A stretch of DNA of 62,811 nucleotides, filler included, from Sluysia triapertura (Eukaryota), in NCBI GenBank assembly GCA_046118255.1. It is 4 parts of 4 records of this genome, joined end to end, with 100 filler letters (N's around TTAATTAATTAA, not from the genome) between each part and the next. Parts side by side here need not be neighbours in the genome. Positions count along the whole stretch, not along the records: positions 1 to 13,081 come from JBJNIA010061093.1; 3 more parts are not named here. The stretch is one strand, 5' to 3'. Below are positions 1 through 26,512 of this stretch, piece after piece. Made by a program: the position numbers and the translations under genes. Below the pieces are notes generated by a model. It was given only the letters and a program-made list of their open reading frames with translations. It searched no databases and was not told the DNA's origin. How positions within the stretch are numbered: the stretch's first letter is position 1; each line of letters starts with the position of its first letter.

Positions 1-691
1 TATTGTCATTATTGTTATATAATATGATTATCAAATAATAACTTTTATAATAAATTTTATATCAACATCAACTATGCGATTATTAACCACGTTGTTGTTA
101 ACATTATTATTTCTTTTATCCTTATTATCAATCTGTCTTCTTATCCTTCCATTTTTTTTCATTTTATATATATTTATATAAGTGTTAATCTGTAAAGTAT
201 GCATTTAATATCCCTATCTCCGCAGTTGCTTCCAAATAGGTATAATGATGTTCAACTTATCGTATTACAAAATCGAGAATTGCAAGCACCATATAGTACT
301 CGTAATGTAAACGTAAATGCAGAGCGATATACATTTTACAATGGCGACTATAAATAGTAAATCTTGACAACGTTGACCATCTGCATCCATTAAGAGGCAG
401 ATTATAAATATATAAAGAGTAGGAATGATTGGTTGTCCAATCGAAACGTAGAATGTGAAGTAGACTATATTAGCAAATGTGTGCCTGTTACCATAGAAAT
501 TTTAATGTTAGTGATTATATCATGTTAAACGGTGGCAGGCAATGAAGTGTTTAATGAAATTATGTCAAGATTGACAGAAACTAAATTAAAATTTGCCAGC
601 AACAAATAATACCAACGAACAACAATGATACTAATAATGATAATAAAAATGCCGATAATAATTATTATAATAAGGTACTTAAATGAAATAA

Positions 692-742
<51 letters not shown>
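692..742. repeat. (AAT)n microsatellite
   Basis: Seen directly. Confidence 0.95.
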
Positions 743-743
<1 letters not shown>

Positions 744-1489
744 TTAATATTAATATTAACATTAAATAAAATAAAATAATAAGTAATAAAATGAGAATAA
801 TAATAACAAAATAAAATTAATAATAAATAATAAAAATATACAATAGTTACATTTACATAAATCTTTCGTAATAAAATTTTTTTAAATAAAATTCTTTTAA
901 GATTTTGTTATTCTGAACTTTATATTCTTTCTATGTACTTTCATATATAAATAAAAGTCTTAAAGATGTTAAAGAAATTCCTTTTTGCTTCTGATGTTAT
1001 ATTGGTTTTAAAATGTTAATTTAATGTTTTCACTGATGCTAATGACTGAGTGTTAAAAGATTGTGAAATGTTTTTGGTTAATATTGAAATATATATTTGA
1101 TGACTTAAGATATAATTGTGGTTCTAATGTTGTGGGATAATGAATAAAATGTTTTAAATGAATTTTTAAATGTACATTGATGGTTTAATGAATGAAAGTA
1201 GAGTTTGGATGTTGAAAGATTGTGAATTTAAAATGCTGTTAAGTATGAAAAATGGTTTTAATGAATCTGAAAATAAAATATGAAAAGGTAAGATAATTTT
1301 TGAAAAGGTAACAATGTAAATGCTAATGAATGTAATAATGCAATTGAATTGATTATTTTGAATTTTTAAGTAGAGGTTGGCCACCACAATGTAAGTATTA
1401 TTATTAATTTCAATTTCTTTAGATATTTCTATTTTAATTTTTGTTGTTTGTTGCGTCACGTCTGGTTTTTTTGGATATATGTTGCGTCC

Positions 1490-1490
<1 letters not shown>

Positions 1491-1537
<47 letters not shown>
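1491..1537. repeat. (ATT)n microsatellite
   Basis: Seen directly. Confidence 0.95.
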
Positions 1538-1539
<2 letters not shown>

Positions 1540-2298
1540 AACGCAATTGTTAATCTTTTGATTTTAGTTATTTTTATTATTATTAAAACTGAAACGTATA
1601 ATAGCAATTTGTACTTGATTTTGAAATTTTTAAATTATTTAGTGGTTATTAATTTGATTTTAAAACATACTAGAGTTGGATAAATATTATTATTAAAATA
1701 AGAGAATTTGTGATAATTTATACTTGATCTAGGGAGTAATGAAATTATTGAGACTCTATTTAGTTAAATTAAATTAATATTTATTTATTGTTACTATTAA
1801 TTTCAACGGCGCAACATTATGAATTTATTGATTTATTTTATTTTCATTAAGATTGTATCAGTAAATTAAAATAAATTATTATAAAATTAAATAAACTTAT
1901 CAAGGTCATTCTCAGACTATATAAGCCATCATAAATTATAATAAACGCAGTCAAAAATTTTTAAGAATTTTAATTATTACAAAGTTTTGGAATCACCGTT
2001 AGGCAATTAAATCTACAATATTAGATAATCCAAGAAAAAAATTAAGAAAGTAAAAGGACCGTCAATATTTTGAAAATGATTATGTTTGCAAAGATTCTTT
2101 GGTTTCACCTAACCTATGATGCAAATAAGCCTAGAAGAGTTCGACCTAACAAAAACGACTTAAGTCTGGACGACGGCGGCCTGTTATGATTTACTGTGCA
2201 AAAGATATAAGCAAACAAAGGCTTAAGATAAGAATTGTTTTTAGATGATTTTAATTTAGTTAAATTATTAAAATCTATTGATAAATTTAATGATTTTG

Positions 2299-2670
2299 AG
2301 TTAGCCTTTTTACGGTCTAACTAATAAAATCAAATATTAAATTAGCCTGTTACGGTCTAATTATTTGAAAACCAAATGTTAATGTTATAATATTGAGCTA
2401 TCCTTATTACGGTATAGCGTTTTTTTACAATTTTAGTAAATAATTAAGAATAAATTTAAAATACACAGTTATATTATTACAATAAAAGAATTAGACTATA
2501 CAGAAGTAGTGGTTACTAATAATAATAATGATTTTATTTAGCTTAAATTCAATTGAATTTAGCTTTCAATATTTTAGAATTAAGTTAACTTATCCTTTTA
2601 CGGTATAAGTTTTGAAAAACTAAAAATTAATTTAAGTTAAATTTTGCTCCTCCCTTCTTACGGTGAGGAG
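2299..2670. other. Array of five covarying hairpins with invariant CC-(N2-3)TTAC-GG-T core (structured cis element)
   Basis: AGTTAG-CC-TTTTTAC-GG-T-CTAACT (2299-2322); AATTAG-CC-TGTTAC-GG-T-CTAATT (2340-2362); GCTAT-CC-TTATTAC-GG-T-ATAGC (2397-2418); AACTTAT-CC-TTTTAC-GG-T-ATAAGTT (2587-2611); CTCCTC-CC-TTCTTAC-GG-T-GAGGAG (2647-2670). Every stem pairs perfectly although the stem sequences differ. Confidence 0.9.
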
Positions 2671-3889
2671 AATAAAATCCTACTAAAAAATAATCTTACT
2701 AATTTCATGGATTTTCTTTGCTGGCTGAAGATTTTTCTGAACAATACTTTACCAAAAACAAATACTGGTTTTTAACCCACAAATTGTTGGTTTTTATATC
2801 CAATTTTTGTTTCTAGCTTCCATATTGTTCACACGTAATTTTATTGATTTAAATAAACAAAATTATCTTTTAAAACCAAAAATATTTTTTAATACTTAAA
2901 TTATTTAGATTAAAAATATCTTTTAATACTTTTAGATTATTTAATAATATTCTTTGTTTATTTCACATTTTTATAATATAATAATAATTTTATTTTTATA
3001 ATTTTTTATAATAATATCATAATAATTAGTTAATAAATAATAATATTAGTCAATTTATATAATTAATAATCACAAATTAGTTATTAAAAATCGCATTTAT
3101 AATTCTTCACAATATTCCAGTCAGTTTCTTCACAAAATATACAGATCAAATATAAAAGGTACCAATGTAATAACAATAATGATCTTTTAACAATTCAGTT
3201 ATTAATTGATTATTTTGAAATTTTAAATGTAAATTACCCAACTCTCTTTAAGGTGTTGGTACGAAACAATTTTAAGAATTTACGAATATTTTAATATTCC
3301 CAAAACTTAACATAAAAAATTACTTATTAAACATGGATCTTCGGAATTCAATCTTGTACTAAAATGTTTTCTAATTTTGTTCTTAAAATCTTCACTTGCT
3401 GCTGTTGTTATTCTTAATGTTTTTGCGTCTTGTTCTAAATTTTTCAATCTATTGATATTAAATTTATAAATCGCCATCTTTAACCTAAATAATTTATTTA
3501 ATTCCTTCTTGACCTAAATAATTTAATTATTTAATTTCTTAACCTAAAAATAAATTTAAATAAATTAGTAATTTAAAACAAAATTACTTTGTAATATTAA
3601 ATTGGTAATTTAAAACAAAATTATTTTTTTAATATTTCCTGATTTATTTTTATTTAATATTTTTTATTTTTTTGATGTTTATATTTTTAATATTTAATGT
3701 TTAATATATTTTAATATATTTTTTAATATTTAATATAATAAAAATAATATTAAAAATTTTATAATATTTACACAAAATTAACAAATATACATAAAACATA
3801 AAACATAAATCATAGAACGTAATTTCTGACATTGCTTTCCCTTTCGGGAAAATTCGTCCACGAATAAAAAAGTTAATTCAATTATTATT

Positions 3890-4780
3890 ATGGATCACAT
3901 TATTATCAATGTTATGTTAGTATTCTTCAAGGAGATAATCGTATGCAATAATACGTGGGTTTTGCTGTCGTCAGGGAATTTTAGTGGCGATCTACGTTGG
4001 ATGGTCGCCTTAGAAACTGTCGTCGGTGCTGATGTTGAAGTCAATGTTGGCGGGTCGCATGATTTTGAATTGATAATTGATGGGATGACGTTCCTAGAGA
4101 GACAGGAGAAGATGAAAAATAGGAAGAAGAACAAGGGATAAGTTTGTGTTTTTTAGGATGAGTAGTAGGTTTCGAGTCAGAATAAGTTTTCTTAAAAAGA
4201 GCAGGAGGGTCATTACACTTTGTGTAGTCGAGAAGGGTCACCAGTTCTGTGGCTAATTGGTGACAAGTTAACACTGGGCTAATAGGAAAGATTAGCCGCA
4301 ATGTTTGACATGCTCTTATAAGAGTCATACGTAGCGAATGGAATCAAATTTTGGTTCTCTAAATTGATTATTCCCCTTAGCAACCCGATAGGTATATTTA
4401 AAGATTTAATAACATATCTGGGGTCTAACGTTAGTAAAATTTCATTTCTCAAAATCCCTAATAATTATAGACGGATTTCATCGATCTCCTGAGCCAACCT
4501 AAGGTCGGTTTCCGTGACGGATTGAGCATTTCTTATGAAATTTGAATGCGACACCGAGGCTTGATGTGAGCCTCAGTGTGAAATTCACGACTGTAGGAGT
4601 ACAGGTCACACATATTAACTGAGTTTTATTTAGAAGGTCAGTGACATTGGAATGCCACAAACATGAGTCGATCCTCGTCATACGCAGGCAAAGGTGGTAA
4701 GTGCATTTGGCTCATATTATCCAAATCCCGCGCGAACGGAAGAAAAGAAGGGGAGAAAAGAGGAGCAGGAGGTAAGACAT
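3890..4780 (-). pseudogene. Degraded intronless secreted/membrane protein gene, probably mobile-element cargo
   Basis: GC-richer coding-like island. ATG at 4780 gives signal-peptide-like MSYLLLLFSPLLFF. Overlapping Cys-containing ORF fragments (4499-4681, 4041-4328, 3895-4134) are broken by stops and frameshifts, with a hydrophobic stretch near 4100-4140. Confidence 0.45.
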
Positions 4781-5279
4781 AAAGTAAAGCGATATGAATA
4801 GGAAATTCGAGAGCTTCACTGTTATATTACAGTCCCTATTTAAATTAGAAAGGTAGTGTTATTGTTATTTTAAGCGTCTCGCTCGCAGATGCTATATATA
4901 ACGTATTGAAATCGTCCGGTGCGATGGTAAACCCTTCAAAGAGATAAGGGAAAGTTCCGGCGACAAAGAAAAATATGGGTTGCCACATTATCAGTTAACT
5001 CGGACTTTAATATACAAGAATTGGGAAAAAATGTAAGAGCAGGCTTTTTAATGCAGTACATATCGAGGGAGGAGTAGAAAATTTGAAATTGATTGATGGT
5101 TTTGGCTTGGACCTTTTGCATTGATTTGGAACTAGGTAAAAATAATAGAATGAAAAGAAATATATACAAAAACCAAAATATAACAAAATAATAAGTAATT
5201 TTTTGTGTTTCAATGTACCTTAGTACTATAATAAGCGATAATAATTAGGAAATGTACTAGTGTTTTAAAAATGGGTTTT

Positions 5280-6040
5280 TACATAATTGTGCATTAGGGT
5301 TAGTAGCATAATTACGTTATTAGCAGTAATTCATTGATGTGGTTGATTACGTAGTAAAAACTTGATAGGTAAATAAATCGATAATTTATGTTACATTAAA
5401 TGGTACACAAATGGCTACATTAAGTTATCTAAGTATGTTACTTAATTGATCTGGTTTGTACATATTTTCGCATAAAGTATATTACTGAATCGATTTTGAA
5501 GTAATGTTGTTTGTGGCTTAATCGTTAATAAAATTGGAGTTAAAGCAGTTCTATTATATTTCGTATGAAAACTTTGCCATAATCATATCCGGTCTTAGTT
5601 TCATTTGATTAACATCAACTTAGATTTTCTAGACTTCTAATTCTAATATTTTTTGCTTACACAAATAAAATACATAAATTAACATGAATTCTTTCGCTTC
5701 TAGCTATTTATCTTTTAATTCTTTATCAACTGAATTATTTTGTAAAAATGCTTTATAATAGTGCTTTAGTTGTGTATATTTGTGTTCAGTTTCTAGCACA
5801 GCTTGTAATTTCTTTGTAACAGTTTCTTCAAAATTATTTATTATCTTCTATTGCAATTCTATTATCTTCTGAATAATGTGAAATCAAGCCAAATAAATGT
5901 GGTGGCAGTGTCGCTGACTTAAGCATCTTAGAAAAATTTATTTGTTCTAAATTTACAGATTTTGGATAATTAGGATTGGATTTAGTTAACATGTTTTTAC
6001 GCCAACCATGAAGTACCAGTTTCAAAAAAAACAGAAACAA
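5280..6040 (-). pseudogene. Degraded intronless ORF remnant with a coiled-coil-like middle
   Basis: ORF 5834-6040 continues in frame past its stop (FEETVTKKLQAVLETEHKYTQLKHYYKAFLQNNSVDKELKDK). No family recognised. Confidence 0.35.
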
Positions 6041-7759
6041 AATAAAAAGGTTGTGATAGGGGTTTTAGAATAGTTTAGATTGTCTTTATAGAAATTTTTA
6101 CTACCGTTTTACTTTGTTACTAAAGTATTATTTAAAGTTTGAGGGATTTTATATGTTGAGCTGTTTAAATAGTTATGTGATTGTGCACTTATTTAATGTT
6201 TAGTGTTATATATATATGTGGTATTTTTTGTGAGTGTGATGTTTTGTTTATTTTAAGTGAAAATATTATGTATTTACGAAAATGTACTATATTAAAAAAT
6301 AAATGTCTGTTAATAAAAGTGTAGAGAAGAGCAATTTATTGTAGTTTAGAGTTTCTATCGAATTATTCTGAAAAGAACATATTGTATTATAGATGCATAG
6401 AAGAATTTTATGACTTCTATTTCGATTTCGATTTCGATTTGATCTTTATATTTGCATTATTTAATGTTGGTTGTAACATGATAGAGTGCTCCAACAATAA
6501 TTATATTTTATATTCATTGATTGAAACAGACTCATCTAATTTATAGTATTTCGAAAATAATAGTATTACTTATTACTTAAGTGATATAACTTATAACTGA
6601 AATTACTTATTCTATTTTACATTATTTTATTTAATTATCACTATTTTATGTTTTATATTTATTATTTCAGCTTTTGCTAAAAGTATTGCATTCCTGATAA
6701 CTACAGATATGTATCGAAAAACCAATAGGTTTGTAATTATTTTTATTGAATTTGTTTTCTAATGATAAAATCTTAATATTTTGAGTTTTGAGATTTTTAC
6801 AATAGTTGCAACACTTGATTTAAATTCACAAAGGATATTATCCTCACACGATTTATATTTTATTGGATTATCAAAAATGTAAATAATAATGGTAGAAAAA
6901 GACAAATTTTTGAGAATTTATTAAAAAAGATATTGTACAACTTATTTTGCATTTGTTTATTCTAATCAATCGGCTACAATAATATCATGAAATACATTGA
7001 GTCCTAAATAGATCTTGGAAGTTCTGTCTAAATAACTGTTATAGACAACGCTATATGTCCTTATATCTTTTAGAGAGGATCTTTCTTTATGTTTTTATGT
7101 TTATCCTATGAATATTTAAAATGTAACACCAAAAATAGGAAATTATTTTCTATATTACACTGTTAACCATAGAAATAAAGATGATTAATCTTCCAAAAGT
7201 ACCGAATACTTCTAAATTGTTTTTCAGATAAGCAAACATCAACTCACGAAGAATAATTATTATTGCCATAAATTAAAGTATTGTATTGATGGTTCAAAGA
7301 CGTATAAGTAAGAATTTTGCAGTTATCGATTTGGTCGGTTACCTATTAAATGTATCTACCAATGCCTTTAATCAATTATAGTCTAAGCACAAGTTTTATA
7401 TTTTTATATTAATTTTACTTTTTAATAACTTATAAGATATCAATTATTCTAATTTTCTTGTACTACGTCCAATCCATCTGGGTTATGGTTGTATTATGGC
7501 GTATCTTACTACTATGAAATTTTACAACATTAATTAATACTATTAATCGCTCTCAGAAATAATAAACAAAAACTTAAATAATATTCTTGAAGGTAAGCGC
7601 GACAATATTGCTAGTATTATTTTTTAATCTACTTTTTGCAAATTAAAGGTTTCTTAACTTATGGGTTCGTTTACAGTTTACGGTTTACGTCTGAACGAGA
7701 ACGTAGCGGTAAGTGTGATTGCTTGATTTTCTTTTATAAATAATTATCCTAAAATTCTT

Positions 7760-9608
7760 ACTTTAATAACTAAAGTAAGGTTTTTAATTTGCAAATTAAC
7801 TGGATTTATGAGTAATTATTCAAATACACTTTCCAAGTTAATTAAATAACAAATAACACACAATTAAATGTATAACAAAATCTATAAAATATAAATTAAT
7901 TACACATCAAATAATTTCGTCAAATGTCAATTAGTATAATTAAATACAACTAAAAACAATACAATTCGGACGATTCGTCGAAAAAATATAATGCAATATT
8001 AAAATATTAGAGTTTTATGCTCTAATATTTGCTAAATATTTTAGAAAGATCGCGTGAAATAATAATTGATTTTAAGTGTAATTTAAGTCTTACGTGCGTA
8101 ATTCCAATGGGTTAAAGGAGACAAAAAACAATGAAAAAATAATTTATAATATGAGAATAGCTGGTAATGTATTAATGGATGGTACTTGTGAAAGAGGTTC
8201 AATAGATTATGAAGAAAAAATTTATCACAACGTAGAAGCTCAAGAAACGAATTAGTAAGTTTAAGATCTTTTAATGAATGTTCTGACTTAGAAAAAGGTA
8301 CAATGATGTCACGTCCATTATGTAATTGTTTTTTAAAAATAATTAAATTTAATTTCCGGATTTATGTATAAAATGAAGATGAACTAGCTGTAGAAGAGAT
8401 AGGTATAAAACAAATTTATAACGATAATTTAGATAAACCAGAAAGGAAAAGATTAAATGAAGTGGTAATTCCACAATTTTAATGGCAAAGAAAGAAGAAG
8501 ATTGATTGATATTTGCATCAAAAAAGTTAATAATAAGATGCGGACAAGAAATCAGAGAGATAAATTATCAAGGAATCTATTTATCTGAAAAACAATTATT
8601 CAAGCAAAGGAAGGCATAGACACAAAAAACTTAAAACAAAATACCTATTTTAATAATAAGATTGATTTTTATTACCACTTAGGATTAATGTCGTTAGAAA
8701 AAGTTTATCAGGCTATGATAATTAGGGATTGCCAACTAAATAAAGAAATACGTAGAACTAAATTAGCGGTAGCAATAACCAACCCAGACTTACTTCCGTT
8801 AGGAGTATTTCGTAGATTGATGGGTGAAGTTTTATATACTTACAAATGTAAAAAAAAGTGGAAGTACAATTCAGGCAAGAAAATGAATGTACTAATGACT
8901 GCCAGTAATACATAAAAATCAAAATACTTATTTAGAACCTGTGATAAGAATAATTATGCCAACTAATAAATTCAAACCGAAAACACTATACTGCTATAAT
9001 ATAATGGCACCGGAATATAAAAATGATGATTATCTTTGGATATCTTTGTCACATAGAAGTTAGGTTAAAACCCCAGTTTGATTGGTTTAACAGGTATAAA
9101 AACAAAATTAAAATTTTCCGCTACCAAAATTATTCCGAGATCAGAAATCTATTCTCTTGAAGATATACAATCAGTTTGGCATGAAATTTTATTTCCTATG
9201 AAGAGATCAAAAGTACTCAGCGATATAGTTAATAAAGCAATTGTAGAAAAAGATGGAAAATTAAATTTTGAAATATTATTAGGACCAGACCATTTTAAAA
9301 AGGCAGCGCATAATACTTTACAACAAATTTGGGGAAATTTTCTAGTAATAGTGCAAGCTTTTTCTGGATTGATAGGTATATATGTAATTGTAAAAGTTAT
9401 TGCTCTTTTAATATTATAAATATTTTCTGTAGTAGGTATTTATAAAATATTGGGATTTACGTGGAAATTAATAACAGGATGTTTCCCGTTTCTAGCTAAA
9501 TTTTTACTACATCATCATGCTCATGCTCAACTAAATGCTTTGAAAAAGAGAGAAAGCAGACTGAAGAAATACCATTTATTTATGGAGATTGGCAAAAGAC
9601 ACAATTAA
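7760..9608 (+). pseudogene. Endogenous chuvirus-like (Jingchuvirales-type, class III/gB-like) envelope glycoprotein, frameshifted
   Basis: Fragments are colinear with chuvirus G / BEL-Pao captured env: IAGNVLMDGTCERG..HNVEAQET; CGQEIRE; TYFNNKIDF; SLEKVYQAMIIRDCQLNKEIRRTKLAVAITNPD; LMGEVLYTYKCKK/VEVQFRQENECTND; YLEPVIRII; SEIYSLEDIQSVWHEILFPMKRSKVL; IWGNFLVIVQAFSGLIGIYVIVKVI (TM); GIYKILGFTWKLITG. Multiple stops and frameshifts. The 5' boundary is approximate. Confidence 0.85.
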
Positions 9609-9619
9609 GGTCAACATTA

Positions 9620-10450
9620 TAATATGTATTTGCTTGTCATGTATCTCTGATACTCATACTGCTACGATTGAAAACTATGATGGACATGGATAACTACTTG
9701 CCACGAAATATCACACATCGAATAACTATCACATCAAATCAAAAAGATATATACGCCATAATACAGATAAATAGAATTAATTTGATTAATCTTCAAATGT
9801 GGTGTTGTATAGTTAATTGGTGCCAAGATTAAGCAAACATGTTTTTATTGGATATTATTCTGTAATAATCAAATACCAATTATTTAATGCTACATTAACC
9901 ATAGAATGTGAATACAACCTTAAATATAACTCAAACTTCGTTCTGCTGAGAAATTATAGGATCAGAAACAAGCCATTCGTTGTTTTCCAGCAATTGTCGG
10001 ATACAATAGAATTCCCAATAGTCATTCACCACTACCTTGGTGATATTGTACGCATGGACAACCCGTTAAAGGATAATACACTAATAATAGCATATATACT
10101 ATACGATTACAGATTGGTGCATTACAGATTGGTAACACCAAAGGCAACAATTCGACCATATCACTTACCGAATAACAGACTAATATTCATCCAAATATGA
10201 AATGCACGATACTCAGGCACTTTTGAAAATGATACTAACATCGATTTAACCATAAAAAATATAGTTAAATATAACATCCTCGTAAGCAGTGAAACAATTT
10301 TATGTGTGCTTGTAAGAGTTCTCCAGAGATAACTGCACCTAATGAGACGGTCACTAATTACGTCAATGTTATAGTTAATAATTACGTTTTAATGATATTT
10401 CTTTTTACAACACTTGCTGTAATAGTCATCCCTTTATAAGGACTTAACAA
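9620..10450 (+). pseudogene. Degraded ORF immediately downstream of the glycoprotein (possible type I membrane protein)
   Basis: Begins within about 15 bp of the G stop, contains the 127-aa open stretch 9817-10200, and ends in hydrophobic YFFFTTLAVIVIP. No introns and no family recognised. Confidence 0.4.
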
Positions 10451-11208
10451 TAGGATCAAAATTGTGAACTGAAATTATTTGCATATCTGACCATATGTGG
10501 TGGTCATATGTAGTGATGTTAATGTTCACATTTATAAAAAGTTTGTAAAATACTGTACCCTTACTTAATTAGGTCATAATAATTTTAATTTAATAGTATT
10601 CTTAATTAAATTTATTAAATTATTTCTTATTTACTTAATATATTTTTATTTTTAGATAGTTAATAATTAATAATTAACAATTAATAATAGTTAACAATTA
10701 ATAATTATGAGTTACACAACCTGTTCAATTTGTTTCTGGTTCATTCGAAAATACTTTGCTAAAGCTATTCCTTGTCTTTACCGATTTTATTTCTCCTGTT
10801 TCTACCTTTTATTTGATACGTCTCTTTCTCCTTTACCATCATCTACTCTATGCAGAGCTACTATTCAGGAATTCAATATATTTTATAAAAGGTCTTTCGA
10901 AAAAAATTACGTCTTCATTATTGAATTCATTTCGGACACGTCAGAGAAACAACCTGGGGTTTGATATCATCTAGCCTATACGGAGTAAATATAAGAAAAA
11001 GCTTAGCAAACATGGTTTGGTGAGACCAGACCCTATTTTTATTTTGGGTCTTACGAAATCTCAAAAACGTAATCATCGTAGATGGCAACTTAAGCACTTC
11101 TATAAAATGACTCAACACCGAATAGTATTAATAATAAACCAATTAACCCTTTTTTGAAAAGGAAATAAGATTAAATATACTTAATATTAAAAAAAAAGAA
11201 TGCATACA

Positions 11209-11693
11209 TGTAACACTAAAAACTTACGATTTTGTACGAAATTGTACAAATTTTTATCTATTGTTCTTAATTTTAGCTCAATTCAAGCTCATATCTTACA
11301 GCAACAGAAAAACTTTTATGTCCAGGTAGAGATGTTTTGTCACAAAAGTATAATCCATACTTTCTTTTCTAACTCTGTAGAAACTACTAGCAATCTTAAA
11401 AGCGAACTAAATCTTAACCTCGCTACGCATTTTTTCATTGTTTCCTTTCTTTTGATGGGTTTTCACAAATACCAGATGATATTAACTCTGTTTATGTAGC
11501 TGTGACTAGATGAATTACCAAAGTTTAACTTTTCATAAAAGCTTGCATTTTATTACCAGGGCTCACAGGTTTTCTGCACTGCACGTGACGAATATCTATA
11601 AAAGTTGTAGTATTGTGATTGAAGCCAACGAGTTCCAACGAGTTCCAACGAGCTTAATTTTAAAGGTTTAAATTTATTTTTTTTTGTGTTACA
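11209..11693. mobile_element. LTR-like or TIR-bounded element (TGTAACAC...GTGTTACA)
   Basis: Perfect 8-bp terminal inverted repeats with TG...CA ends, about 485 bp long, with an internal (CCAACGAGTT)x3 at about 11625-11652. No target-site duplication seen. Confidence 0.5.
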
Positions 11694-11884
11694 TAATTCA
11701 ATGAAACAGATGATAATTAGTTATTTGATTTATTTCATTTCAAAAAAATGCTTTAATAAAATAAATTTTACTGTACACGTTAAAAATATCAAATAAAATA
11801 TATTAAAGAAAACTAATTATAAAATATCGAAAAAGTAATATCACTTGTCTTTATCATGTACTTATAAATAAAGTTTGTCAAATT

Positions 11885-12530
11885 AGTGACCATTAACGAG
11901 GCCAGAATTCTCACCACCTACACTTACTATGTTCGGAATGTCTTCATTACTTTTTGAATCATGGACTCGTTGCTGTTCTTGTTTTGGGTCAAAATAAACC
12001 CAGAGTTAGTTTAAATAGATGATTGAAGATTTAATGGAGTAGATAGAACATTAGACTTTGTTACTTCATTGCTCTTTCAGCTAAATAATCACAGCATTCA
12101 TCTCCAATTACTTTTACATAATTAGTGATGTTATAATCTGTATTTGGATTTAGAAAGACAATATTGACTTTTAGTTGTTTCCTCATTTTCCGTAGATTGC
12201 ATCCACATGTAGCAATTAAAATTGGATGTATTTCTTTAGGTATAAAAATTTGTTCGTCTTTGAGCTCGTAAACAATCAATCACTAAACATATCTCATCAC
12301 GTGCTTTTTTAGAATCTTCTTCGTAACCATGAATAATAACAGTAGATGAACCATTATATTTGCTTCTGAATGTTTCAATATTGGCACCACGTAAACTAAT
12401 CATCCCTTGTTAATTATACTTTGGCGTTCCAAAGACTTATAAGGGCTCGAGACCTTGTGGAAGCTTGAAATAGACTTGGAAAACCTTTGAAGGCATTAGA
12501 GTACCTTTAAGCTCATCTAACACCTTATTA
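11885..12530 (-). pseudogene. Intronless degraded tandem KH-domain fragment resembling the C-terminal KH repeats of vigilin/HDLBP
   Basis: PKYNYKG/MISLRGANIETFRSKYN..TVIIHGYEEDSKKARDEICLVIDCL, then a frameshift to EQIFIPKEIHPILIATCGCNLRKMRKQLKVNIVF..YVKVIG. This matches the vigilin pattern IIGRKGAVI..ITITGYEKNTEAARDAIL..VHARIIGARGKAIRKI..VDIRF. Confidence 0.7.
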
Positions 12531-13010
12531 ACCTTTAGATATTTTTGAAAACTCTATAAGCATATTATAGTGTTTAATATAAGTAATATTATAGTGTTTA
12601 ATATCTCTAAAATAATTGAGATATAAAATCATAGTTATTGGTATTAAAAGTAAATGTAGTAGAGTAATAATTAACATGAAGAAGTAGAAAAGAAATCAGA
12701 GAGGTGAAGGTGAAAACATCTAGAGCCTCCTGAACTCCTTATAAACTACTAAATAACTTTAGAACCTTAATAAAACATTTAAACATAAAATAAGATTAAG
12801 TCTAAAAATAGATTAATTAATTAAGAAAAAGGTAGGTTTTTGAATGCGGAATTCTATGTCAAATTTGAAACTGCGTATGCATTTGTTTTGAAAAGACCTT
12901 TCAAGGAAGATATGGTTTGACCGAGTTCATGCAAGGAAAGCCTTAATATTGAGCAAATTCATATTTTTATTATTTTTAATTATGGAATATTGAATTTTTT
13001 ATACTTAGAG

Positions 13011-13060
13011 CAGTGGTGTCAAACCTTTTTGCTTTACGGGCCGCCACTTTGACACCACTG
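13011..13060. mobile_element. 50-bp internally deleted hAT-like MITE
   Basis: 13-bp perfect TIRs CAGTGGTGTCAAA / TTTGACACCACTG. CAGTGG termini are typical of hAT-Charlie elements. Confidence 0.7.
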
Positions 13061-13081
13061 TATTAAGGTAATAAAATAAAT

Positions 13082-13181
13082 NNNNNNNNNNNNNNNNNNN
13101 NNNNNNNNNNNNNNNNNNNNNNNNNTTAATTAATTAANNNNNNNNNNNNNNNNNNNNNNNNNNNNNNNNNNNNNNNNNNNN
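13082..13181. other. Assembly gap with artificial TTAATTAATTAA linker (also at 32066-32165 and 46935-47034; plain N gap at 25582-25794)
   Basis: The same 44N+TTAATTAATTAA+44N, 100-bp structure occurs three times. Confidence 0.97.
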
Positions 13182-13396
13182 TAAGTTCTGAACCTATTAG
13201 TCGATCAAATATTCAAAAACTATTGAAGTTAAATGCAGCAAATTGCTTAATATTTTCAGTGTATTACTTACATATTGGAAGGTCACATCAGTTATTTTTA
13301 CCTAGCAAAGATTTAATTGAATTGTTAAGCATGCATCGTATTAAAACTCGTGACAAATTAATCAACTTTTGGTGATTTTGATTATTTTACATCTAG

Positions 13397-13752
13397 CTAA
13401 AAACCATGATGTGCGAGATGTTATTGAAGAATATTCGCAAGGAAATATCAATTTAATGATGCGTATCAAAGAGCTTCAGCGAACAATCGATCAATCTATT
13501 GGGAAACCTTACATTTACGGTTATGATTCAAGTTACGAAATTAATAAACAGCACAGTCAGGATAGTTCCAGAGTGAAAAATTGTCATGAAAAGCGAGTTC
13601 GTCATACAGTCCATGGTAGACTGAGTCAATTAGAATATAAATTGAATACCATAGAAACAAATTTAATTCAACTTCAACAGCAAACTATTAAAATTCATTC
13701 TGAAGTGGTGGAATTGAAAAAATTAACTACAATCAATTTTCAAAATACGTAA
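13397..13752 (+). CDS. KCNQ1: Terminal exon of KCNQ (Kv7, KCNQ1-like) potassium channel; helix C/D assembly domain
   Basis: [35 protein letters not shown] matches KCNQ1 [35 protein letters not shown], followed by a helix-D-like [17 protein letters not shown] coiled coil. Acceptor ttttacatctag at 13396; stop TAA at 13750-13752. Confidence 0.92.
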
Positions 13753-14025
13753 AAATAATCCATAAAAACAAATTTTATGATAATAAAAACGACACGTTGT
13801 TGCAAAACTTAATTGAAAAATTGTGCTTCCGTATCTTATAACTATTTATAATTTAACAATAAAAAGAAAAATTAATTTGTAAAATCATAAAAACAAATGC
13901 ATAAAAATTAATCACATTTAATAAACTAATCGATTAATTAAGGCTAATTTTGAAATTGTCATTAGCAATTGGATATTTACATGAAAATTAAAAATTTACT
14001 TTGTTGATCCAGAATTAATTAACTA

Positions 14026-14889
14026 ATGCTTAATTACCTATTATTAGCGTTGGCTTTATTAGCTGTTATTACCATTCGATATACAGATTCACTTAAGTGT
14101 CATCACTGTGAACGTTGCAACGATCCATTTACGTTATCAGATACTATATTAGATAACTGTAAAAGTTGTACTAAACTCATCACTAGAAGTAATTTCGGAC
14201 GTTATTGTTCTGTAAAAACATGCAATAAAATGTGGTTTATATTACTACTGCTTACAAGTTTCAATGAACGCCTATTTTCTAATACAAAATGTACAGTGGA
14301 CAATTTACACGAAACTCACTTTAGTAAGAATGCGTTTGAATTAACAAAGCATTGTTGTTTATTTTTAAATCCATGCTATTCTGCAGTTCATTTTTATATT
14401 ACTGATAATAGTGTAAAATGTGGAAGTAATTATAATGATAGACAAGTTAAATTTTCATTGCTCGATAAAAATAAACCAGTACAAAGTAATTTACCAATTA
14501 TTATGATAAAAGTTTTAATGAAAATTTGGTGTTACGTGTCATTTGAAAATGTTACCTATATATCCAGTTTTTATGTTTTAGAAATTAATACTGATGACAT
14601 CAAAAACTTATCTCTTATAAATTATCTGGTTATTTTATTTCCATTTCCATTATGTCGTTATATGAATATTATATTTTTGGTGTTAACAAATGTTGTCTAC
14701 TTATTAAATTTAATAATTGTTTCTTTGTTTTTAATCGTTTCAGGCATTAAGCCTATTTTTATAATAAAAAAAATAATGTGTTTTAATCCACTTAATTTAA
14801 TTGTAATTAATTTGTTAAAAATAATTTCTAAAATAAATAAAAATAGAATAAATTTAAAATTAAAAAATGTTTTGCCCTCCACACATTAA
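14026..14889 (+). CDS. Secreted/membrane Ly6/uPAR (three-finger)-like protein, intronless ORF
   Basis: Signal peptide, then SLKCHHCERCNDPF...NCKSCTK...CSVKTC...KC...HCCLFLNPCYS, which is LU-domain-like Cys spacing. 287 open codons in very AT-rich DNA; hydrophobic C-terminal third. Confidence 0.7.
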   Translation: MLNYLLLALALLAVITIRYTDSLKCHHCERCNDPFTLSDTILDNCKSCTKLITRSNFGRYCSVKTCNKMWFILLLLTSFNERLFSNTKCTVDNLHETHFSKNAFELTKHCCLFLNPCYSAVHFYITDNSVKCGSNYNDRQVKFSLLDKNKPVQSNLPIIMIKVLMKIWCYVSFENVTYISSFYVLEINTDDIKNLSLINYLVILFPFPLCRYMNIIFLVLTNVVYLLNLIIVSLFLIVSGIKPIFIIKKIMCFNPLNLIVINLLKIISKINKNRINLKLKNVLPSTH

Positions 14890-16198
14890 TAAAATTAGTA
14901 TTAATATAAAATACTAATGTGACCAACTATTCTTAATTCGCAAGCTTTTCACCTCATAAAATCATATTGGTATTTTAAAAGTAATTGTAATAATAGAAAA
15001 ACTTTCTCAAAATATATTAAATAAAATATTTTTGAAAAACACTAATTTATTATATTAAATAAAATATTTTGAAAAACACTAATTTATTAAATTAATTTAA
15101 TGCAATTTTAGAAATCAAACGAATTACAATTACCGTAAATTAGTCACCATTAATTTACTTTAACTACAACAGAATAATCTATAAGCTTCATACTATAAAT
15201 AAATGAATTATTACTTTTACATGAATTCATTCAACACAAATAGTCATGATATCCCAACTCACTTCAAATAAAGTATAAGTTCAAGGTTAATTTAATTTTT
15301 AATAGACTAAAATCAACTTATTTAATATTTTTTAGTCAATTTATTGCAAAAAATGCAATAGAATGTCTAATTTCTAAAAATAGTTTAAGAGATAATTCTA
15401 TTATCCAATGAAATTTTTTATGAAAGAACATAAAATAAAAAGAAATTTTATTGTGTAGATATTGATTTTATTTTCCAATGTTAGATTGAAAAAATGGTAA
15501 ATAAATTTATATATTTTATATTTAGTGATTTAATATATTTACACAGTAAATTGTTTCTTATTTGCGAACTCTTCTAATATATTTTAAAATTCATAGTTTT
15601 AAATAAAAATTTTTACGAAACTGTAAAATTATAATAAAATAAAAATATAATTTCAAATAAATGTCAAAATATTTCAGTAATCTTGAAATAAAATTATAAT
15701 TAAAGATTAATCTAAAAATATTCTAGAATCGCCAAAATAAACATCTCAAATAGTCTTGAAATCAAAAATAAATGAAAGAAAATTAAAAAAGATTAATTTA
15801 AATACACCGTCAAAGAAAATTCTATACTTTTATTAAAATATGAAAACTAACTTACAAAATGATTTTAACATAGTAAACGAGTTATATCAATGAAGCCATT
15901 TCTATAGATTTCTTATTTCTGAGTATCATCTACTATGTAGCAGTGTTTTACAAATTTAACTAACTCTTTTGTATTATATGCAAAATAATGTAAATTAAAT
16001 TAATATAAATAAATATAAACTAATCAATGCAACGTTTCTCTTGTGTAAATGAATCTTTTAAGATATCGTGCTTTAAAGCTAATCGTTAAATTTAATTCTA
16101 CGACATATAGATATGCAAAATAATTTATTCTCACAAATTATATTCTCCTTAAAAATTTTTATAATTATTATATACTTTTAATTTATTTTTCATCTTAT

Positions 16199-16590
16199 CT
16201 TAAGGAATTATATTGGTTGCCAATAAAAGCAAGATTAGAATACAAAATCAGGACAATAATTTACAAATGCTTACATTACAGAAGTCCTGAATATCTCTTA
16301 GAAATAATAAAAAATTTGGAAACCGAAATGAATATTTCATTGAAACATAATAATCTATACAGAATCCACAGTGATAATAAGCCAGATGATAGGTCATGTA
16401 CCGTTTATGTTTCAAAAATATACACCCAGTTACCAGAGAATGTCAAATTACTGGAAGATCATGAAATATTTAAGACAAGGTCAAACTTATTTCTGTTTCA
16501 GAAACATAGTGAATGATTTATTTTAAGCGCTTTTGAGTACTTATTTTGCAGTATATATGAGCGCGATATAAATTAATATATTATTATTAT
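16199..16590 (+). mobile_element. 5'-truncated L2/CR1-group LINE 3' end
   Basis: LKELYWLPIKARLEYKI..IYKCLH..SPEYL...LPENVK....FKTR..LF is the L2 ORF2 C-terminal motif. It is followed by an AAGCGC-TTTGAG..GCGCGATATAAAT stem-loop 3' UTR and an (ATT)n tail. Confidence 0.85.
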
Positions 16591-18044
16591 TTTCAATTAC
16601 TTGCTTAAAAATGAATTCAAAATTAAATTACACAAATATAGTTGTGTAGACACTCGTTGTAATTGTTTATAATGTTTAATTACAGCCTATCTAAGTACAA
16701 TGGATGAAAAGACGAGAGGATTAATAAAAGACACATAGAAATTAATATTTTTATATATTCAGTTTTTATCATTAAAGTATTTTCACTTAATGATTATTGA
16801 AATGCGATTTTGGTTTATGATTTTATCGCTAGCATTATCCTATGCAAAAAGATAAAATGATTTTTAGTATATTTTATGCCTTAATTTAATTAAGGTGAGT
16901 CATGTGTAAAATATATTAAGATTTATGAATCATAAACAATTTGGAAATTAGTACTAATTAATCACAGGTTCTAATGTCGAAAGGAAACCCAGATAATGCC
17001 AATAAATTTTTGTAGCTTTTTCTATTTTTCCAAAGCGCTAAAACTGGTAATAAGGTAACATTTAATTTCCAATTCTTGGTACTAAAATCACAAAACTGTC
17101 ACTTGTAAGGTTGAGGCCGTTCATGTTTAACTTGGTTGAACGTACGAACAAATTTCCAACACGAAACAATAGTTTATCTCGCAAATTAGATAATTTGTTA
17201 TTTCTCTCTCTTATATTATTTTAATGTCTTCTATTTATATACAAATTAAGCGTTCCAAAACATAGTTTTACTAATTTATTACTGTTTATTATTCATATTA
17301 TGCTTTATTTATTATTATTTTATTATCATATTAGTACCAAACTACATTTACAATCTTAATTTTTTAATATAATGCGTAATGAATCGCATAATTTATAATC
17401 TGCCTTAACATTGAATACTAACAAGAACAAACCAACACATCACCAGAAAATGATCGAACATACACAGTAATATAGCCAATAAATACTATTTATTTGCAGT
17501 TATGAATATTTTAGTAAAAAATATTTATTATTAATATTTATCATTATGAATAAAAATCACATATTTTGAACCAGCAATATGAATAAAATAATAATAAAAA
17601 ATTAAAAAAAAATTATTTATTGATCAAGTTCATTATATAAATATTTTTAAACTCAGTAGTATTTTCATTAATACTTTTTAATGACAAAATTATGTAATGC
17701 ACATATTTTATGTTAATAATTACAATTTTGTTGAGATTACTTTTTTGTGCACATTTTGTTTGTGGATGTTTTGTCTGAATACTAAATTTCTCTAATTTTT
17801 TATTCAGAAAAGATAATACTTATGACTGTTAAATCATTGATGATTACAATTTTTAATCTTACAAAAAATTAACATTTTAAGACACATGCTAACTACATCA
17901 GTGAGATTTATCTAGATTCTGATAATATTATGAATCTAATAATCCACTAAGTTAAGTTTTAATGATACTGTGTTCAATAATTTTATAAATTAATGAAATT
18001 CATTGTATCATTTTTTAAACTAAAGGTGCACAATACATGGATGA

Positions 18045-20096: not shown

Positions 20097-20825
20097 GTTA
20101 GTTAATCACTGTTGTTGTGCGTTTTATTGGATTTGTGAAAAATAATTAAGATAATATTGATAATATTGAATCTTCAAAATGTACAGTTTCTTTTCGTATT
20201 TAAATTTTACATATCCGTTGTTTAAAGAGTCATTTCATTTGTATATTATTATGACTTCATGTTATATTGAGTCACATTATTTGTTTTAATTGAATATACT
20301 TAACTCTGCGTGTGAGACTGCATTTAATTAGTAGAATATCACATGAAAACACAAAAGACAAATAATTTTTAAAAATGTATTTAAAAAACAGTATTAATTA
20401 CAAAATATTGTAATTCAATTTATTAATATTGAAAGGTTGTAAATTTTTAAATGTTTTTAGAAACCAGTAAAATCTGAACAAAGCTTAATATCCTAGATCT
20501 GCCACCCATTTTGGGTATCTAGAGTAAGATAATTGAGTAGAGTCTCTCCAGATATACTAATATACTTTAATAATATTTTGATGGTGCTTCTAATTTTGTG
20601 TATTAATTTACGTTGTAATAATTTTTAATCTGCAAAGACTAATAATTTATAATTTTCGGAAAAGTTATTTCAATAAACATTTCTCAAACTCAGTGTATAG
20701 AAAAAAATGTGAGAATTGCCTAAGGAAAATAGAAGTAATATTGATTTAAAATGTACTGATTTCCAACTATATTTTTACGAGTTAATTAAATTTAGTAAAG
20801 CAACGAATTTTTTATTTTTTCCCAG

Positions 20826-20993
20826 AGGTCATTGGCATGGAGATGTTATGGTATTTCTCTATGAAAATCTAAATGAGGACGAACAGAAAAAATTCTGGGA
20901 AAAGGTAAGAAATCTGACAATGATCCGGCATGAAAATATTATCCTATTTATGGGAGTTGCTGTAGAACTACCACAATATCTTATGGTTACCAG
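20826..20993 (+). CDS. KSR-like pseudokinase exon (subdomains II-IV)
   Basis: cccag|..|gtaagc; GHWHGDVMVF...MIRHENIILFMG carries the Raf/KSR WHGDVA and RHENLVLFMG signatures. Confidence 0.92.
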
Positions 20994-21630
20994 GTAAGCG
21001 GTACTATATGCCTTCAATATTGTTTGGTGTACAAAAAATCCAAAATATGTATTCACATTTTAATTGTTAAAATTAAATTTTCAAATAACATTCAATATTT
21101 GGGTTTCTTAAGCAGAAAACATATATTTGTTAAACATTTATATGTAATGAGAAATATTTACAAATATTTGTCATATATATTATATATTTATAATGTTTCG
21201 CATTAAAAATTTATCTTTTTGAAATAAGAAATCATTTTTTATGTTTAATGGAGAATACAAAAGTACTGCACATAAAATTCAAACAATTAAGTAATATTTT
21301 AACTGAATTTTAATATTTTTTAAAAATATTTTACTAAGTATATTCTCCAAATTATCTGGAAGTCACAACTTAACTTAACAATTAAGTTAAATAATAGGTA
21401 TTCCTTCTAACCATTTATAAAGTTAAATCGTTAAATTGTCCCTAAAACTTCAGAAATATTATGTCAAGTTATGTATTCTAGGCGCGTTTAAATACTAATT
21501 TTTAGTAGATATTAATAGTAGATAAATTAATATTGTTAAAGTTATTCAAGAATTATGGCATGTGAAATATTTTGTTAATATCTACTCTGGATATGTTGTT
21601 GAATTAAAATAACTTACAGATGAAATCATT

Positions 21631-23832
21631 TGTCAGATCTGGATCTAGAATTAAATTAATAATAAAAAATAATATAAAAATTACATATAAATAATAATAA
21701 AAAAATTAATAATAATAGAATTTTTAAAATTAATAATATGATTATTGATTGTAATATTAATAATAGTGGAAATAACAATGATAATATTGATAGTAAACGT
21801 AATTAACAGATATATCCTTTTACGACAAGAAAGTATTAATAAAACAACATTATCATATATGCATAATATTTGTAAAATAATAATACATTTAACATAATAA
21901 TTTCTGTAGAATCCTTGAAATTTTTAGATATACAATTGATAAAAGTACATTTGTTATAACAGTACCTTTTATTCTATGTATATATTTTTCCGAAATATCA
22001 CTTTGATTCAAAATTATCTTACGAAATGTATTAATTAATTAAACGTTTGTCAGTTAATTAAAGAAAAATGAATCTAATGTGTCTTGATTGTGTGTTGTTT
22101 ACTGGGATAAGTGCAATTATAAAAGTGGTTTTTATTACTACTTTCACAAATTCAATAATTGGTAAAGCGAACAAAGAATGATATTTTATATCTAAAGACA
22201 TTCGAGTTTCTGAAAAATTACAATTAATTTTGTTTTGTTTAAACTTAATTATATTGAATTTAATATTTTGGGAGATACTTGTGTAGTGGTTCACCTAATA
22301 ATTCAAAGTTTTATATCACATTGTCCATCCACATAAAACAAAAATTCATCACTTAAACAATTGATACATATTAAGTAATCAGAATATGTTAAATGCATTC
22401 AACACAATACTTTAAGCTCTTTATGCCATAACATAAATTCTTAAATAATTCACTCCATTTAAAAACAATGAAACATATTTTATTCTCACATGTTCAGCTT
22501 TTAGATTTTTATATTTTTCTTTCAATTCCCTCATTCTAAACATTAGGCAAATAACAATTGTTGATAGTGACAATAATTAGTCTCATACTAATAATAATAT
22601 TATTATTCTATTGTTTTATTATCATCATTCTTTTTATTATATTTATTTGATTTTTATTACCTAATTATTTTCGGTCTATTTTCTTCGATTTTGAATTTCA
22701 AAGGTATCGCCATAAGTAATATTGCTAAGACCAAGAAAAGAGTAAAATAATGCTTTGCATCCATGATAAAAAGTTCGTAAAATGAGAACTACAGCTACAT
22801 TTAAATTACCTAGAACTTTAAAATCACGACGAAACCCAAAACATGAAAAGAGTAACACAACCGGAGATAATAAATTAGATCAATTTCACATTGTCCGTAA
22901 ACCTTTAACGACTGAATCACCCATGAAAGTTATCCCAATTTAGTAATATTTATGTTCATAATGTTAATTTTGTAACTACAATTTTGTGTGTGCATAATAA
23001 ATCAAAGGATATTTATATTATTTTTAATCAAAGTTAATGCAAGTAACGGTCCTTAAGACCATTCGATATAATTTATTATGTTTAAATCGTAAATATATAT
23101 TAGTAATATTTGCGTTATTTTCTTTGTCAATAATGTAAAAGTAAAATTTCAGATAAAAGTAGTGTTAAGTTATATTCCCAGAAGACAAAAGTTACGTTTC
23201 TATGAACACTATGATTCTCGCGATTTAAAATGTCGAGCATTTATACGAACTTATAAATTTCTACCTTTATTATCAGTAACAAATCAATTGCATGAATATT
23301 ATTTCAAGTCATTATTACTATTTATTCCTATAAACACAAATTTATACATTCCAAATTTACATTCACATGATAAACATCTTGCAGAATTAGATTATAAATT
23401 ATGTACAAAATTTTCTATTTTGGCAAATGGCAGTAATGTATATTTTTCTGATTCAGTAACTTCTTCTATGAACAAGTTCCTAATCATTTTTTTACACGCA
23501 AACTACGAAAATTACCCAATTACGTCTATCTAAAACCTGTATATCCACACTCCAAACTATATCAAATAGAATTAATATCTATTTTATTATCAAAATTCAT
23601 CATAATCAAACATTTGTAAATTACAAAATTTATATAATAACTATTCATTTAATATACAAAAACTTGCATCATCCTTGCTTAATATATTTTTCCAAACTTT
23701 TGTATTATTAGTGCTGTGTAAAGTTAATTGTTAATTAACTATTATTTTAACATTTTTTGATTTAGTAATTATTTTTGATAATTAATAAATTGTAATTTTG
23801 TGATATCGATAATATTATTTCAGTTAGATCTC
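21631..23832. mobile_element. Intronic degraded mobile-element fragment with ORF remnants
   Basis: Starts TGTCAGATCT and ends AGATCTCA. Contains intronless ORF remnants (e.g. 23162-23533) separated by (ATT)-rich linkers, as in 1-10500. Boundaries are tentative. Confidence 0.3.
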
Positions 23833-26281
23833 ATATTTAAAAGGTAAGTAAAGTTGCTTAAAATATTCAACAGTATACTATTATTATTAAATATTTTGTA
23901 TGTCCATAAGGTCAAATACTCATCAGAATAATAGGAAGTTTATCAATCCCTTGAAACAATAGTAGATATAAAATATTGTAAAATACGATATTATTGATAA
24001 TTAAATGAAATGATCTTTCATTTTTTTCAATTTGTTATTTTTAAAAGACACCTTTTCCATTAATCTTATTTTTTCTGTAATATATTTTACACAAAAATAT
24101 AGAAGTAAACGGCATTGACACTTTTAATAAATGTTAATAATTGTATAAAATTTTGATACTTTTAAAAGTTTCATCTGAAATGTAACTATGTTGATATTTT
24201 AAAGTGCAAATTTTGGAATAGATTGCTAAATCGTTTAAACAAAAAATAATCAATTGAAGCTATAAATACAAAATCGTTTTATATACTACTCAGACAGTTA
24301 GAAAATTTGTTAAGGAAAAGAGAAAAAGTGAACTATATCTGTTGAAATAATTTATTGTTTTTATTTGCAAGAAAATTACGACATTTTAACTAAATTTAGA
24401 TTAAAGTTTAATTACCCTAAATATTATCCAAAATTCATTGTACATTTTGGAACAAAAATATTATCAAAATAAAACTTGTATATCTAATTTAATATTAATG
24501 ACTTCAGTACTTATCTTTTACCATCATTAATCCAAAACTTCAGAACCGTACAAAATTTGTCTAATTTTATTTAAAATATTTTTAAATTTTGCTTAAATTT
24601 CAAATCACTAGCTAAAAATCAAAAGATGTAAGAAATCGTTGGATTTTGAAATATATTAAAATTTATTTTTGAAAACATTGAAAGAAAAAGAAAAATAAAA
24701 TTTTGTAATCTGAAATATAAAGTAAATATTTAAAATAAAACAAAAATAAAATGAAAGTTGGAATGTACAAATTAAAATGGAAATCAAAGCATATTATTAA
24801 GTGACTTATAGTCAGTAATTGTGAGCGAATATTCTACAGATTTAAGATTATTGTTTTATCAGATATCATAAAACAAAAATGACACTTTAATCGAACAATG
24901 TAATTTGGAAAAGTTACACTTTCTGTGATAGTAAAGATGAAATTAAAAAGTGGATTCATAAATATTATAAAGTTAAACAGGTCTGAAAAATTACGAATGG
25001 ACAATCCACTGATTTTGTTGGATCCAAGGTAATTTTTAGAACCAAATAAGTCAGTTTGAATAAAGGATAAATAAACGCAATTGTCATAAATGTATAACAA
25101 TGAAATGTGTCCAGTAGTACTAAAATGTAATGCCAAACAGTGGATCTCGAATGAATAATTCTGTTTAAGACGACCAAGTAATTACTGCTAGAAATTACAA
25201 TGTGTTTATTCAAATTATTAACCCAATTAGTACCATTTATTTAACATTTATGTGTATATTTTGGAAGATTGTACCAATGAAAGATCATACCAATAAAGCA
25301 CTTATTTTTTAATTAGATAGCAATTTTATTGAAAGTTTATTTGTTTCCAAGTGGGTATATTTATATTCTTTTGACATACAATTTTATCGGTATTTTGAAA
25401 AAACATCGCTTTTTCAAATAGGAACATTGGTACTGAATGGGTTATTTATTATTTCTAGCGCTAATTTCAAAGAAAATGAAATTTCAAAAACATGGATTAT
25501 AGTTCTTCTTTGTTCTGATAAAATATGTACGATAAAAATCAAGAAATTTTTATGGAAAATTCTAAAAATTCTTGAAGCTTTNNNNNNNNNNNNNNNNNNN
25601 NNNNNNNNNNNNNNNNNNNNNNNNNNNNNNNNNNNNNNNNNNNNNNNNNNNNNNNNNNNNNNNNNNNNNNNNNNNNNNNNNNNNNNNNNNNNNNNNNNNN
25701 NNNNNNNNNNNNNNNNNNNNNNNNNNNNNNNNNNNNNNNNNNNNNNNNNNNNNNNNNNNNNNNNNNNNNNNNNNNNNNNNNNNNNNNNNNNNNNCATTAA
25801 GTATTCAAACTAAAAGATTCAATATTGCAAGAATAATTAAATCTGTAGTATTGATTTTCAAAAGAGCTCTCTTATTGTAACATATATTGTAGGATATCAT
25901 TAGATTTTGTTTCAAGAAACGAAAATTTTACTAAAGCACAAGAGTTCGCACTTTTTGAAGAATATAAAAGATTTTAGATGAAGCAAGAGAAAATATAAAT
26001 GATATTGAAATTATTAAATTGACTGTAGATGAAAAAGTTGCTAAAGAAAATGTATATGAACAACTTGAAGTAAAATACGAAACTAACATCTATAATCTAA
26101 AATACTTAAAATTCGTTTTATTTATTTTTTGTGAATCATTAATCTTATTTCAATCAGAAGTAATAAAAAAATATTTCAAAAGGTAATTAAGGGTTTATTA
26201 ATGAGCACTTATTTGTAGATTTATAAATTATATTCATTATAGTTATTACTTGCATTTTTGTTTATTGATTTTTTGTTTAAG

Positions 26282-26512
26282 TGCTTGTAATGGTCCATCA
26301 CTGTATGAAAAAATACACATGAGTCGAGAAAAAATGCGTCAAAGTTTTAAAATTAGTCTAATGCGTCAGATTGCTCAAGCAGTCGGATATTTGCATGCCA
26401 AAAGTTGTCCTGTTATTGTAAAGAGACTTAATTCAAAAAACATTTACATGGAACCCAAAGTTGTCCTGTGTCTCTTGGATTACAGTAATTTAGATCAGGA
26501 CGATATTGATAT
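26282..26512 (+). CDS. KSR-like pseudokinase exon (subdomains V-VII)
   Basis: tttaag| in phase with the previous exon; SACNGPSLYEKIH..QIAQAVGYLHAK..IVKRLNSKNIYMEPKVVLCLLDYS. The donor gttatt is inferred from phase. Confidence 0.88.

Follow-up and report, generated by a model that had tools for sequence, protein, structure and literature searches.

A broken class III env gene in the genome of Sluysia triapertura, probably left by a Burro-type Ty3/gypsy retrotransposon

The closest described counterparts of the locus analyzed here belong to Ty3/gypsy retrotransposons of flatworms, for which the presence of a chuvirus-type env between gag and pol has already been published. In the available part of a review covering the planarian element Burro (PMC6431247), a single ORF encompasses Gag, CCHC, Ubi/SUMO-like, BCL2, env, protease, dUTPase-like and RT regions, and degenerating pieces of Burro, interrupted by stops and frameshifts, are recorded in Dugesia japonica. 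The accessible portion of a survey of errantiviruses (PMC13524379) places HSV/gB-type GAG-ENV-POL elements in Platyhelminthes, Nematoda and Bryozoa, lists 9 flatworm elements of this type in its supplement and includes a combination of RT clade E and IN clade Y that consists of flatworm elements only (8 of 8 rows). In mosquitoes, Anakin elements of the BEL/Pao superfamily also bear a chuvirus-type G on an LTR retrotransposon, and solo G relics are common, according to the sections of PMC7642597 that we used. A further source, PMC10084718, deals, in its available part, with arthropod EVEs. Troyka, as presented in the accessible text of PMC12440569, was considered and set aside as unrelated to the relic described below.

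The window, that is, the entire stretch of DNA analyzed here (62,811 nucleotides, filler included), is AT-rich eukaryotic DNA with about 24% GC, short exons and microsatellites. Between positions 8088 and 9605 on the plus strand, three of the seven stop-free pieces match the Pfam family PF24664 (Monjiviricetes_fusion) in colinear order, at profile positions 124-168 (E 0.082), 295-385 (E 1.1e-5) and 462-568 (E 3.1e-15), the last of these being the only match that passes the curated cut-off. Frameshift-aware alignment to a 642-column env profile built from 23 relatives assigns 8112..9575 (+) to columns 129-632, with six frameshifts (near 8251, 8466, 8591, 8854, 8898 and 9080) and three in-frame stops (8503, 9061 and 9417); a profile of 6 sequences recovered 8473-9560 only, with 159 identities over 358 columns to L001, an intact relative discussed below. 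The TM anchor and the next hydrophobic helix of env, with one stop within, are located at 9339..9455 (+) by hydropathy and by tblastn to the relatives. The Pfam pieces and the profile alignment bear out the preliminary description of this locus, made from the sequence alone, insofar as it recognized a frameshifted chuvirus-type glycoprotein on the plus strand with its motifs in order through the TM. Roughly four fifths of a chuvirus-type G remains, much broken (about 79% of the gene, from the middle of domain I to the cytoplasmic tail, the 5' end being missing). This copy is incapable of encoding an intact protein and likely yields no protein; the suggestion that it is potentially infectious does not apply to it, given the frameshifts and stops, the lost 5' end and the lack of gag, pol or an LTR in the 62.8 kb window.

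The 5' part of the relic, 8112..8326 (+), which comprises pieces of domain I, is weakly conserved: its alignment score of 62.6 was reached by none of 200 shuffles, its Pfam match is the one with E 0.082, and its motifs agree, in a comparison by eye, with domain I-II of Schmidtea ENV. Env columns 1-110 are undetectable in 7600-8110, where 186 of 200 shuffles score equally well, and the composition of 7000-8110 is that of the background (A 0.37, T 0.38), as opposed to the A-rich relic (A 0.42, T 0.31). Because it combines background composition with no detectable env similarity, the putative 5' end of the gene at 7760..8110 (+) is left out of the relic, and the earlier delineation of a near full-length gene starting at 7760 is abandoned. 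The A-rich plus strand spans about 7800 to 10400.

The relatives of the relic were assembled starting from P0001, in which env is followed by aspartyl proteases, and were supplemented with P0002-P0005, with the loci L001 and L002 and then with the best 150 of 1410 representatives. The two loci came from a scan with alignment A1 (198 stretches); a scan of metagenome contigs with P0001 confirmed 0 of 137 stretches, a scan of prokaryote genomes 0 of 181, and in a search of sequencing runs one run, which may be the source of this DNA, shares 0.70 of the words, with no RNA run among those listed. By tblastn, 133 of the 167 proteins compared match the relic. The 13 best relatives reach 218-300 summed bits, and the first 21 rows, all of which outscore the top named chuvirus G (130 bits), are envs embedded in polyproteins or unnamed fragments. 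The names of 20 relatives were checked, yielding two chuvirus Gs, one wasp protein and one protein from a mis-binned bacterial MAG, with the rest unnamed or 'hypothetical'. The protein from the MAG (P0010) is a gypsy env-pol polyprotein of 2627 aa labelled Flavobacteriaceae, likely a eukaryotic contamination of the bin.

The env genes of 16 of these relatives are parts of long polyproteins. A protease motif follows env in frame in 14 of the 16 long relatives, the remaining two stopping at env; RT is present in 8, and Gag and putative ubiquitin-like and Bcl-2-like domains precede env in some. The order of domains, assembled from partial contigs, runs in a single ORF from Gag with CCHC knuckles through the ubiquitin-like and Bcl-2-like domains (where present) to a hydrophobic leader, Env and its TM, and continues after the TM with one to four proteases, RT, RNase H, integrase and, in some relatives, further membrane modules. 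For example, the 5'-open ORF of L001 (2-10282; 3426 aa) encodes env, three proteases, RT, RNase H and integrase, and its RT-RNase H is nearest to Ty3-G Gag-Pol (E 7e-97). L001 also contains a signal-ectodomain-TM module between the proteases and another past the integrase, and a separate ORF for an RNase T-type exonuclease (10617-12107) after the polyprotein ORF. L002 encodes a CCHC motif and a candidate ubiquitin-like domain (E 0.0047) upstream of env, and P0007 has a Bcl-2-like match (E 0.00096) of a kind that is weak and recurs among the relatives; the ubiquitin-like and Bcl-2-like matches are below the curated cut-offs. In L002, a single in-frame stop, immediately upstream of the env leader, divides the Gag-ubiquitin-like-Bcl-2-like ORF (61-4266) from env; this could reflect decay, a sequencing error or read-through. 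No LTR was found in L001 or L002, both of which are incomplete. Two to four tandem proteases are present in 7 of the 16 relatives (L001, P0001-P0004, P0008 and P0013), and hydrophobic segments lie past the RT in 6 of the 8 that have one; in the literature searched, no paper was found on 2-4 proteases or extra membrane modules in such elements.

Comparison with the published elements reveals the same architecture. As in Burro/GYPSM1 of dugesiid planarians, described in the part of PMC6431247 at hand, env of the relatives is located in frame between Gag, with putative ubiquitin-like and Bcl-2-like domains, and protease-RT-RNase H-integrase, and both envs resemble mononegavirus-type fusion glycoproteins; the 2-4 proteases and extra membrane modules of several metagenomic relatives are not mentioned for Burro in that part of the review. 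The relatives also share the env type and the gene order with the 'ancient errantiviruses' of Platyhelminthes in the available text of PMC13524379, and, by eye, six Schmidtea ENV domain I-II sequences from that source have motifs in common with L001, P0001-4 and the pieces in the window. The tie of the relic to the Schmidtea elements consists in this comparison by eye and in the order of domains. Because the relatives' domain order and the env motifs match those of published elements, the relic appears to derive from a known kind of element, in accordance with the earlier attribution to a large retroelement, as its env, and not to a virus that has N and L genes. This attribution agrees with the tree described below.

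With a colinear match to the Monjiviricetes fusion profile and a C-terminal TM, the relic is, judged from its sequence, a gB/chuvirus-type class III fusion glycoprotein. The gB-like fold itself is predicted for the intact relative L001. The AlphaFold model of L001 env, built from 89 sequences, has a pLDDT of 92.4 and supersedes an earlier poor model from 7 sequences (pLDDT 57.8). It is similar to herpes gB at E 4e-13 and to chuvirus G at E 9e-41, as the preliminary description had anticipated for a fold search, with a TM-score of about 0.4 to gB and 0.56-0.68 to the best chu-like G. Thus, the G of Chuviridae/Jingchuvirales and herpes gB share with the present material PF24664 (the relic) and the predicted fold (L001 env), whereas at the sequence level L001 env is only about 23-25% identical to named chuvirus G, and the N and L genes of chuviruses are absent beside the relic.

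To place the relic, a tree of 62 rows was built from the relic, entered with X at its breaks, and 61 of the 127 sufficiently covered proteins (from 164), leaving out 7 near-duplicates and the lower-ranked rest of the 127. The relic nests among 16 polyprotein-embedded envs (SH-aLRT 99), as the sister of P0159 (92), in a quick LG+G4 search that includes only two named chuvirus Gs and no named Burro sequence; the named chuvirus Gs, the hymenopteran envs and the BEL-associated env fall outside this group. Accordingly, the relic joins the gypsy polyprotein envs and stands apart from both the named chuvirus Gs and the BEL-associated env, the kinds of protein with which the preliminary description had proposed to compare it by phylogeny. 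In tests on 33 rows, placement of the relic outside the 16-member polyprotein group is rejected by a modest margin (p-AU 0.028), and its grouping with the G of Tacheng tick virus 4 and the unnamed sister of that protein, a grouping picked after the first tree, is rejected with an AU p of 4e-67. The branch of the relic is long (0.84), its composition is atypical, and its identity is at most 40% over 458 columns.

These placements bear on the possibility that the relic is a G that entered the genome directly from a chu-like negative-strand RNA virus, through reverse transcription and insertion along with a neighbouring viral ORF. Such an origin would fit the Pfam family and the fold, which are those of chuvirus G, as well as the lack of retroelement genes near the relic, and in mosquitoes, according to the part of PMC7642597 available, chuvirus EVEs most frequently take the form of a G by itself, with neither N nor L. 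The named chuvirus Gs, however, are much farther from the relic than the polyprotein envs (identities of about 27-33% across the main segments, besides the lower bit score given above), the grouping with the tick virus protein is rejected, and no free virus of the relic's clade came to light in the scan of viral contigs (0 of 111 stretches confirmed). Hence a direct viral insertion seems very unlikely to us, and the tree and the lack of N or L nearby likewise disfavour the divergent Jingchuvirales EVE that had been put forward.

The reading that we prefer, with a probability of roughly 80%, is that the relic is a broken, 5'-truncated env left by a giant Burro-type Ty3/gypsy retrotransposon; probably, it is an ordinary fossil of a known element and not a new virus. 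The Gag upstream of env and the protease-RT-RNase H-integrase downstream in the same ORF, which the relatives have, are absent for the relic. Because it consists of env only, and for this sole reason, the relic does not qualify as a Burro element and is classified as a fragment; since it stands apart from any gag, pol or LTR, its origin from a retroelement is deduced from relatedness. In contrast to Burro as described in the available part of PMC6431247, there is env only, with no LTR and with a candidate membrane-protein ORF next to it, and whereas the flatworm errantiviruses in the accessible text of PMC13524379 are intact and in many cases present in multiple copies (two Schmidtea elements have 45 and 215), the relic is a lone dead piece.

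Under this preferred reading, the parent element would have produced one polyprotein with a cytosolic Gag first, in which an internal signal sequence would direct Env into the ER and signal peptidase would separate Env from Gag. The TM would act as a stop-transfer segment, so that protease-RT-integrase would stay in the cytosol, attached to the tail of Env, until freed by a protease, and Env would trimerize as a class III fusogen that carries particles from cell to cell. The proposed topology follows from hydropathy and general membrane-protein biology. In the copy at hand, the 5' part and the pol region would have been lost by deletion or rearrangement after insertion, followed by neutral decay in an AT-rich genome. 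The dead fragment lengthens by one the list of hosts of a gypsy lineage with env that is known from flatworms, and at least 16 unnamed metagenomic proteins indicate a greater diversity of Burro-type elements than is seen in the few with names. The multiple proteases and membrane modules of these proteins bear on the packaging of Pol in elements where Env sits between Gag and Pol.

Not a protease but a decayed ORF, a likely type I membrane protein, follows the env tail directly, at 9600..10450 (+). It has a hydrophobic start, a beta-rich middle and a TM at about 10368-10445; its longest open stretch, 127 aa, is attained in 2 of 1000 shuffles, and it shows the same A-rich strand bias (AT skew) as env. 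The ORF and the env relic are probably parts of the same insertion. Searches of Pfam, Atlas and PDB detected no homologue of the ORF (only V-set_CD47 at E 0.069), and no similarity was found to 7 modules of the relatives (best E 0.089) or to the flanks of the 16 relatives. Upstream of the relic there is no excess of ORFs (992 of 1000 shuffles attain the open stretch seen there). The packed intronless ORFs reported to flank the glycoprotein thus reduce to one decayed ORF after env, with host sequences and the remains of repeats beyond.

The adjoining ORF may be an accessory module that was drawn near env through the loss of pol, an idea that comes from the hydrophobic segments after the RT in 6 of the 8 RT-bearing relatives and that no sequence similarity supports. 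A related alternative is that the locus derives from a pol-less or rearranged Burro derivative, consisting of env and an accessory membrane gene and dependent on an autonomous partner, or from some other element with a Burro-type env. The env tail leading straight into a membrane-protein ORF with the same strand bias is what such a derivative would look like, and an internal deletion in an element like most of the RT-bearing relatives could join a module to env; against this stand the dissimilarity of the ORF from the modules and flanks of the relatives, the single copy seen and the lack of LTRs in the window, and we consider a derivative of this kind distinctly unlikely. The most far-reaching version of the idea is that the relic is a pol-less Burro-derived unit, in which env is joined to an additional membrane glycoprotein, and that its host is from an animal group without reported Burro. 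The unit would be part of a broader lineage, found in aquatic settings, of giant gypsy polyproteins that contain as many as four proteases in tandem as well as several membrane proteins and are cut in the ER like the polyprotein of an RNA virus. This proposal is speculative and, on balance, unlikely.

An env of the Anakin type, as in BEL/Pao elements, or an env domesticated by the host appears extremely unlikely. Anakin elements do bear a chuvirus-type G in the portion of PMC7642597 at hand, and a BEL-associated env, P0102 (with DUF5641), is among the homologues; but P0102 is distant from the relic in the tree, the relatives bear Ty3/gypsy Pol, and Anakin differs both in its superfamily and in the clade of its env. 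The BEL/Pao lineage proposed in the preliminary description therefore gives way to Ty3/gypsy, with env in frame between gag and pol. Domestication is excluded by the nine breaks.

The other coding pieces in the window are host-like, namely, KH, a KCNQ tail, a Ly6-like protein, a KSR-like kinase, zinc fingers and a Ras/Roc small GTPase. In tblastn with 167 proteins, including 8 RT-bearing polyproteins, only env and a kinase exon matched in the window. The gag-pol genes and LTRs that the preliminary description suggested looking for near the relic were not found: a Gag-side profile has no match in the window, no LTR-sized direct repeat is present in 1-16000 or in the comparison of 1-30000 with the whole window, and nothing ubiquitin-like or Bcl-2-like, no tRNA and no Rfam match was detected in the window. 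A region near 15.6-15.8 kb that aligned with the Pol profile (iE 0.34) was rejected as chance.

Some information on the host comes from an intron-containing gene for a KSR3-like pseudokinase at 20713-31856 (+), which lacks the HRD and DFG motifs. Its kinase exon is nearest to KSR and had one unnamed match in a search made to place the host, and the missing HRD and DFG, read from the sequence, correspond to the description of KSR3, a gene that, in the available part of PMC10322840, is lost in insects, nematodes and chordates and retained in ticks, horseshoe crabs and flatworms. Because of this gene an insect host is unlikely. The label 'non-arthropod' holds insofar as insects, like nematodes and chordates, are improbable hosts, and it does not extend to arthropods in general. 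By analogy with the env clade, the host may be a flatworm.

Several minor features of the window can be noted. At about 12060-12520 (-), KH repeats of the vigilin type, interrupted by stops and showing no evident introns, are perhaps a decayed retrocopy, and 14023-14280 (+) is a candidate for the start of a secreted Ly6/uPAR three-finger-like protein (Atlas 0.86, below 0.9). A block at 3800-5000 has about 40% GC against a background of 22-24% and several frames of 70-100 aa; it has no Pfam match and is probably another repeat fragment. The regions 16124-16600 and 33552-33694 resemble what we take to be the 3' end of a CR1/L2-type LINE, and a 149-nt part of this repeat recurs inverted with 81% identity. 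Finally, in each of 3 of the 4 N gaps, a 12-nt linker that has stops in all frames separates two 44-N runs, a pattern that is likely an assembly artefact.
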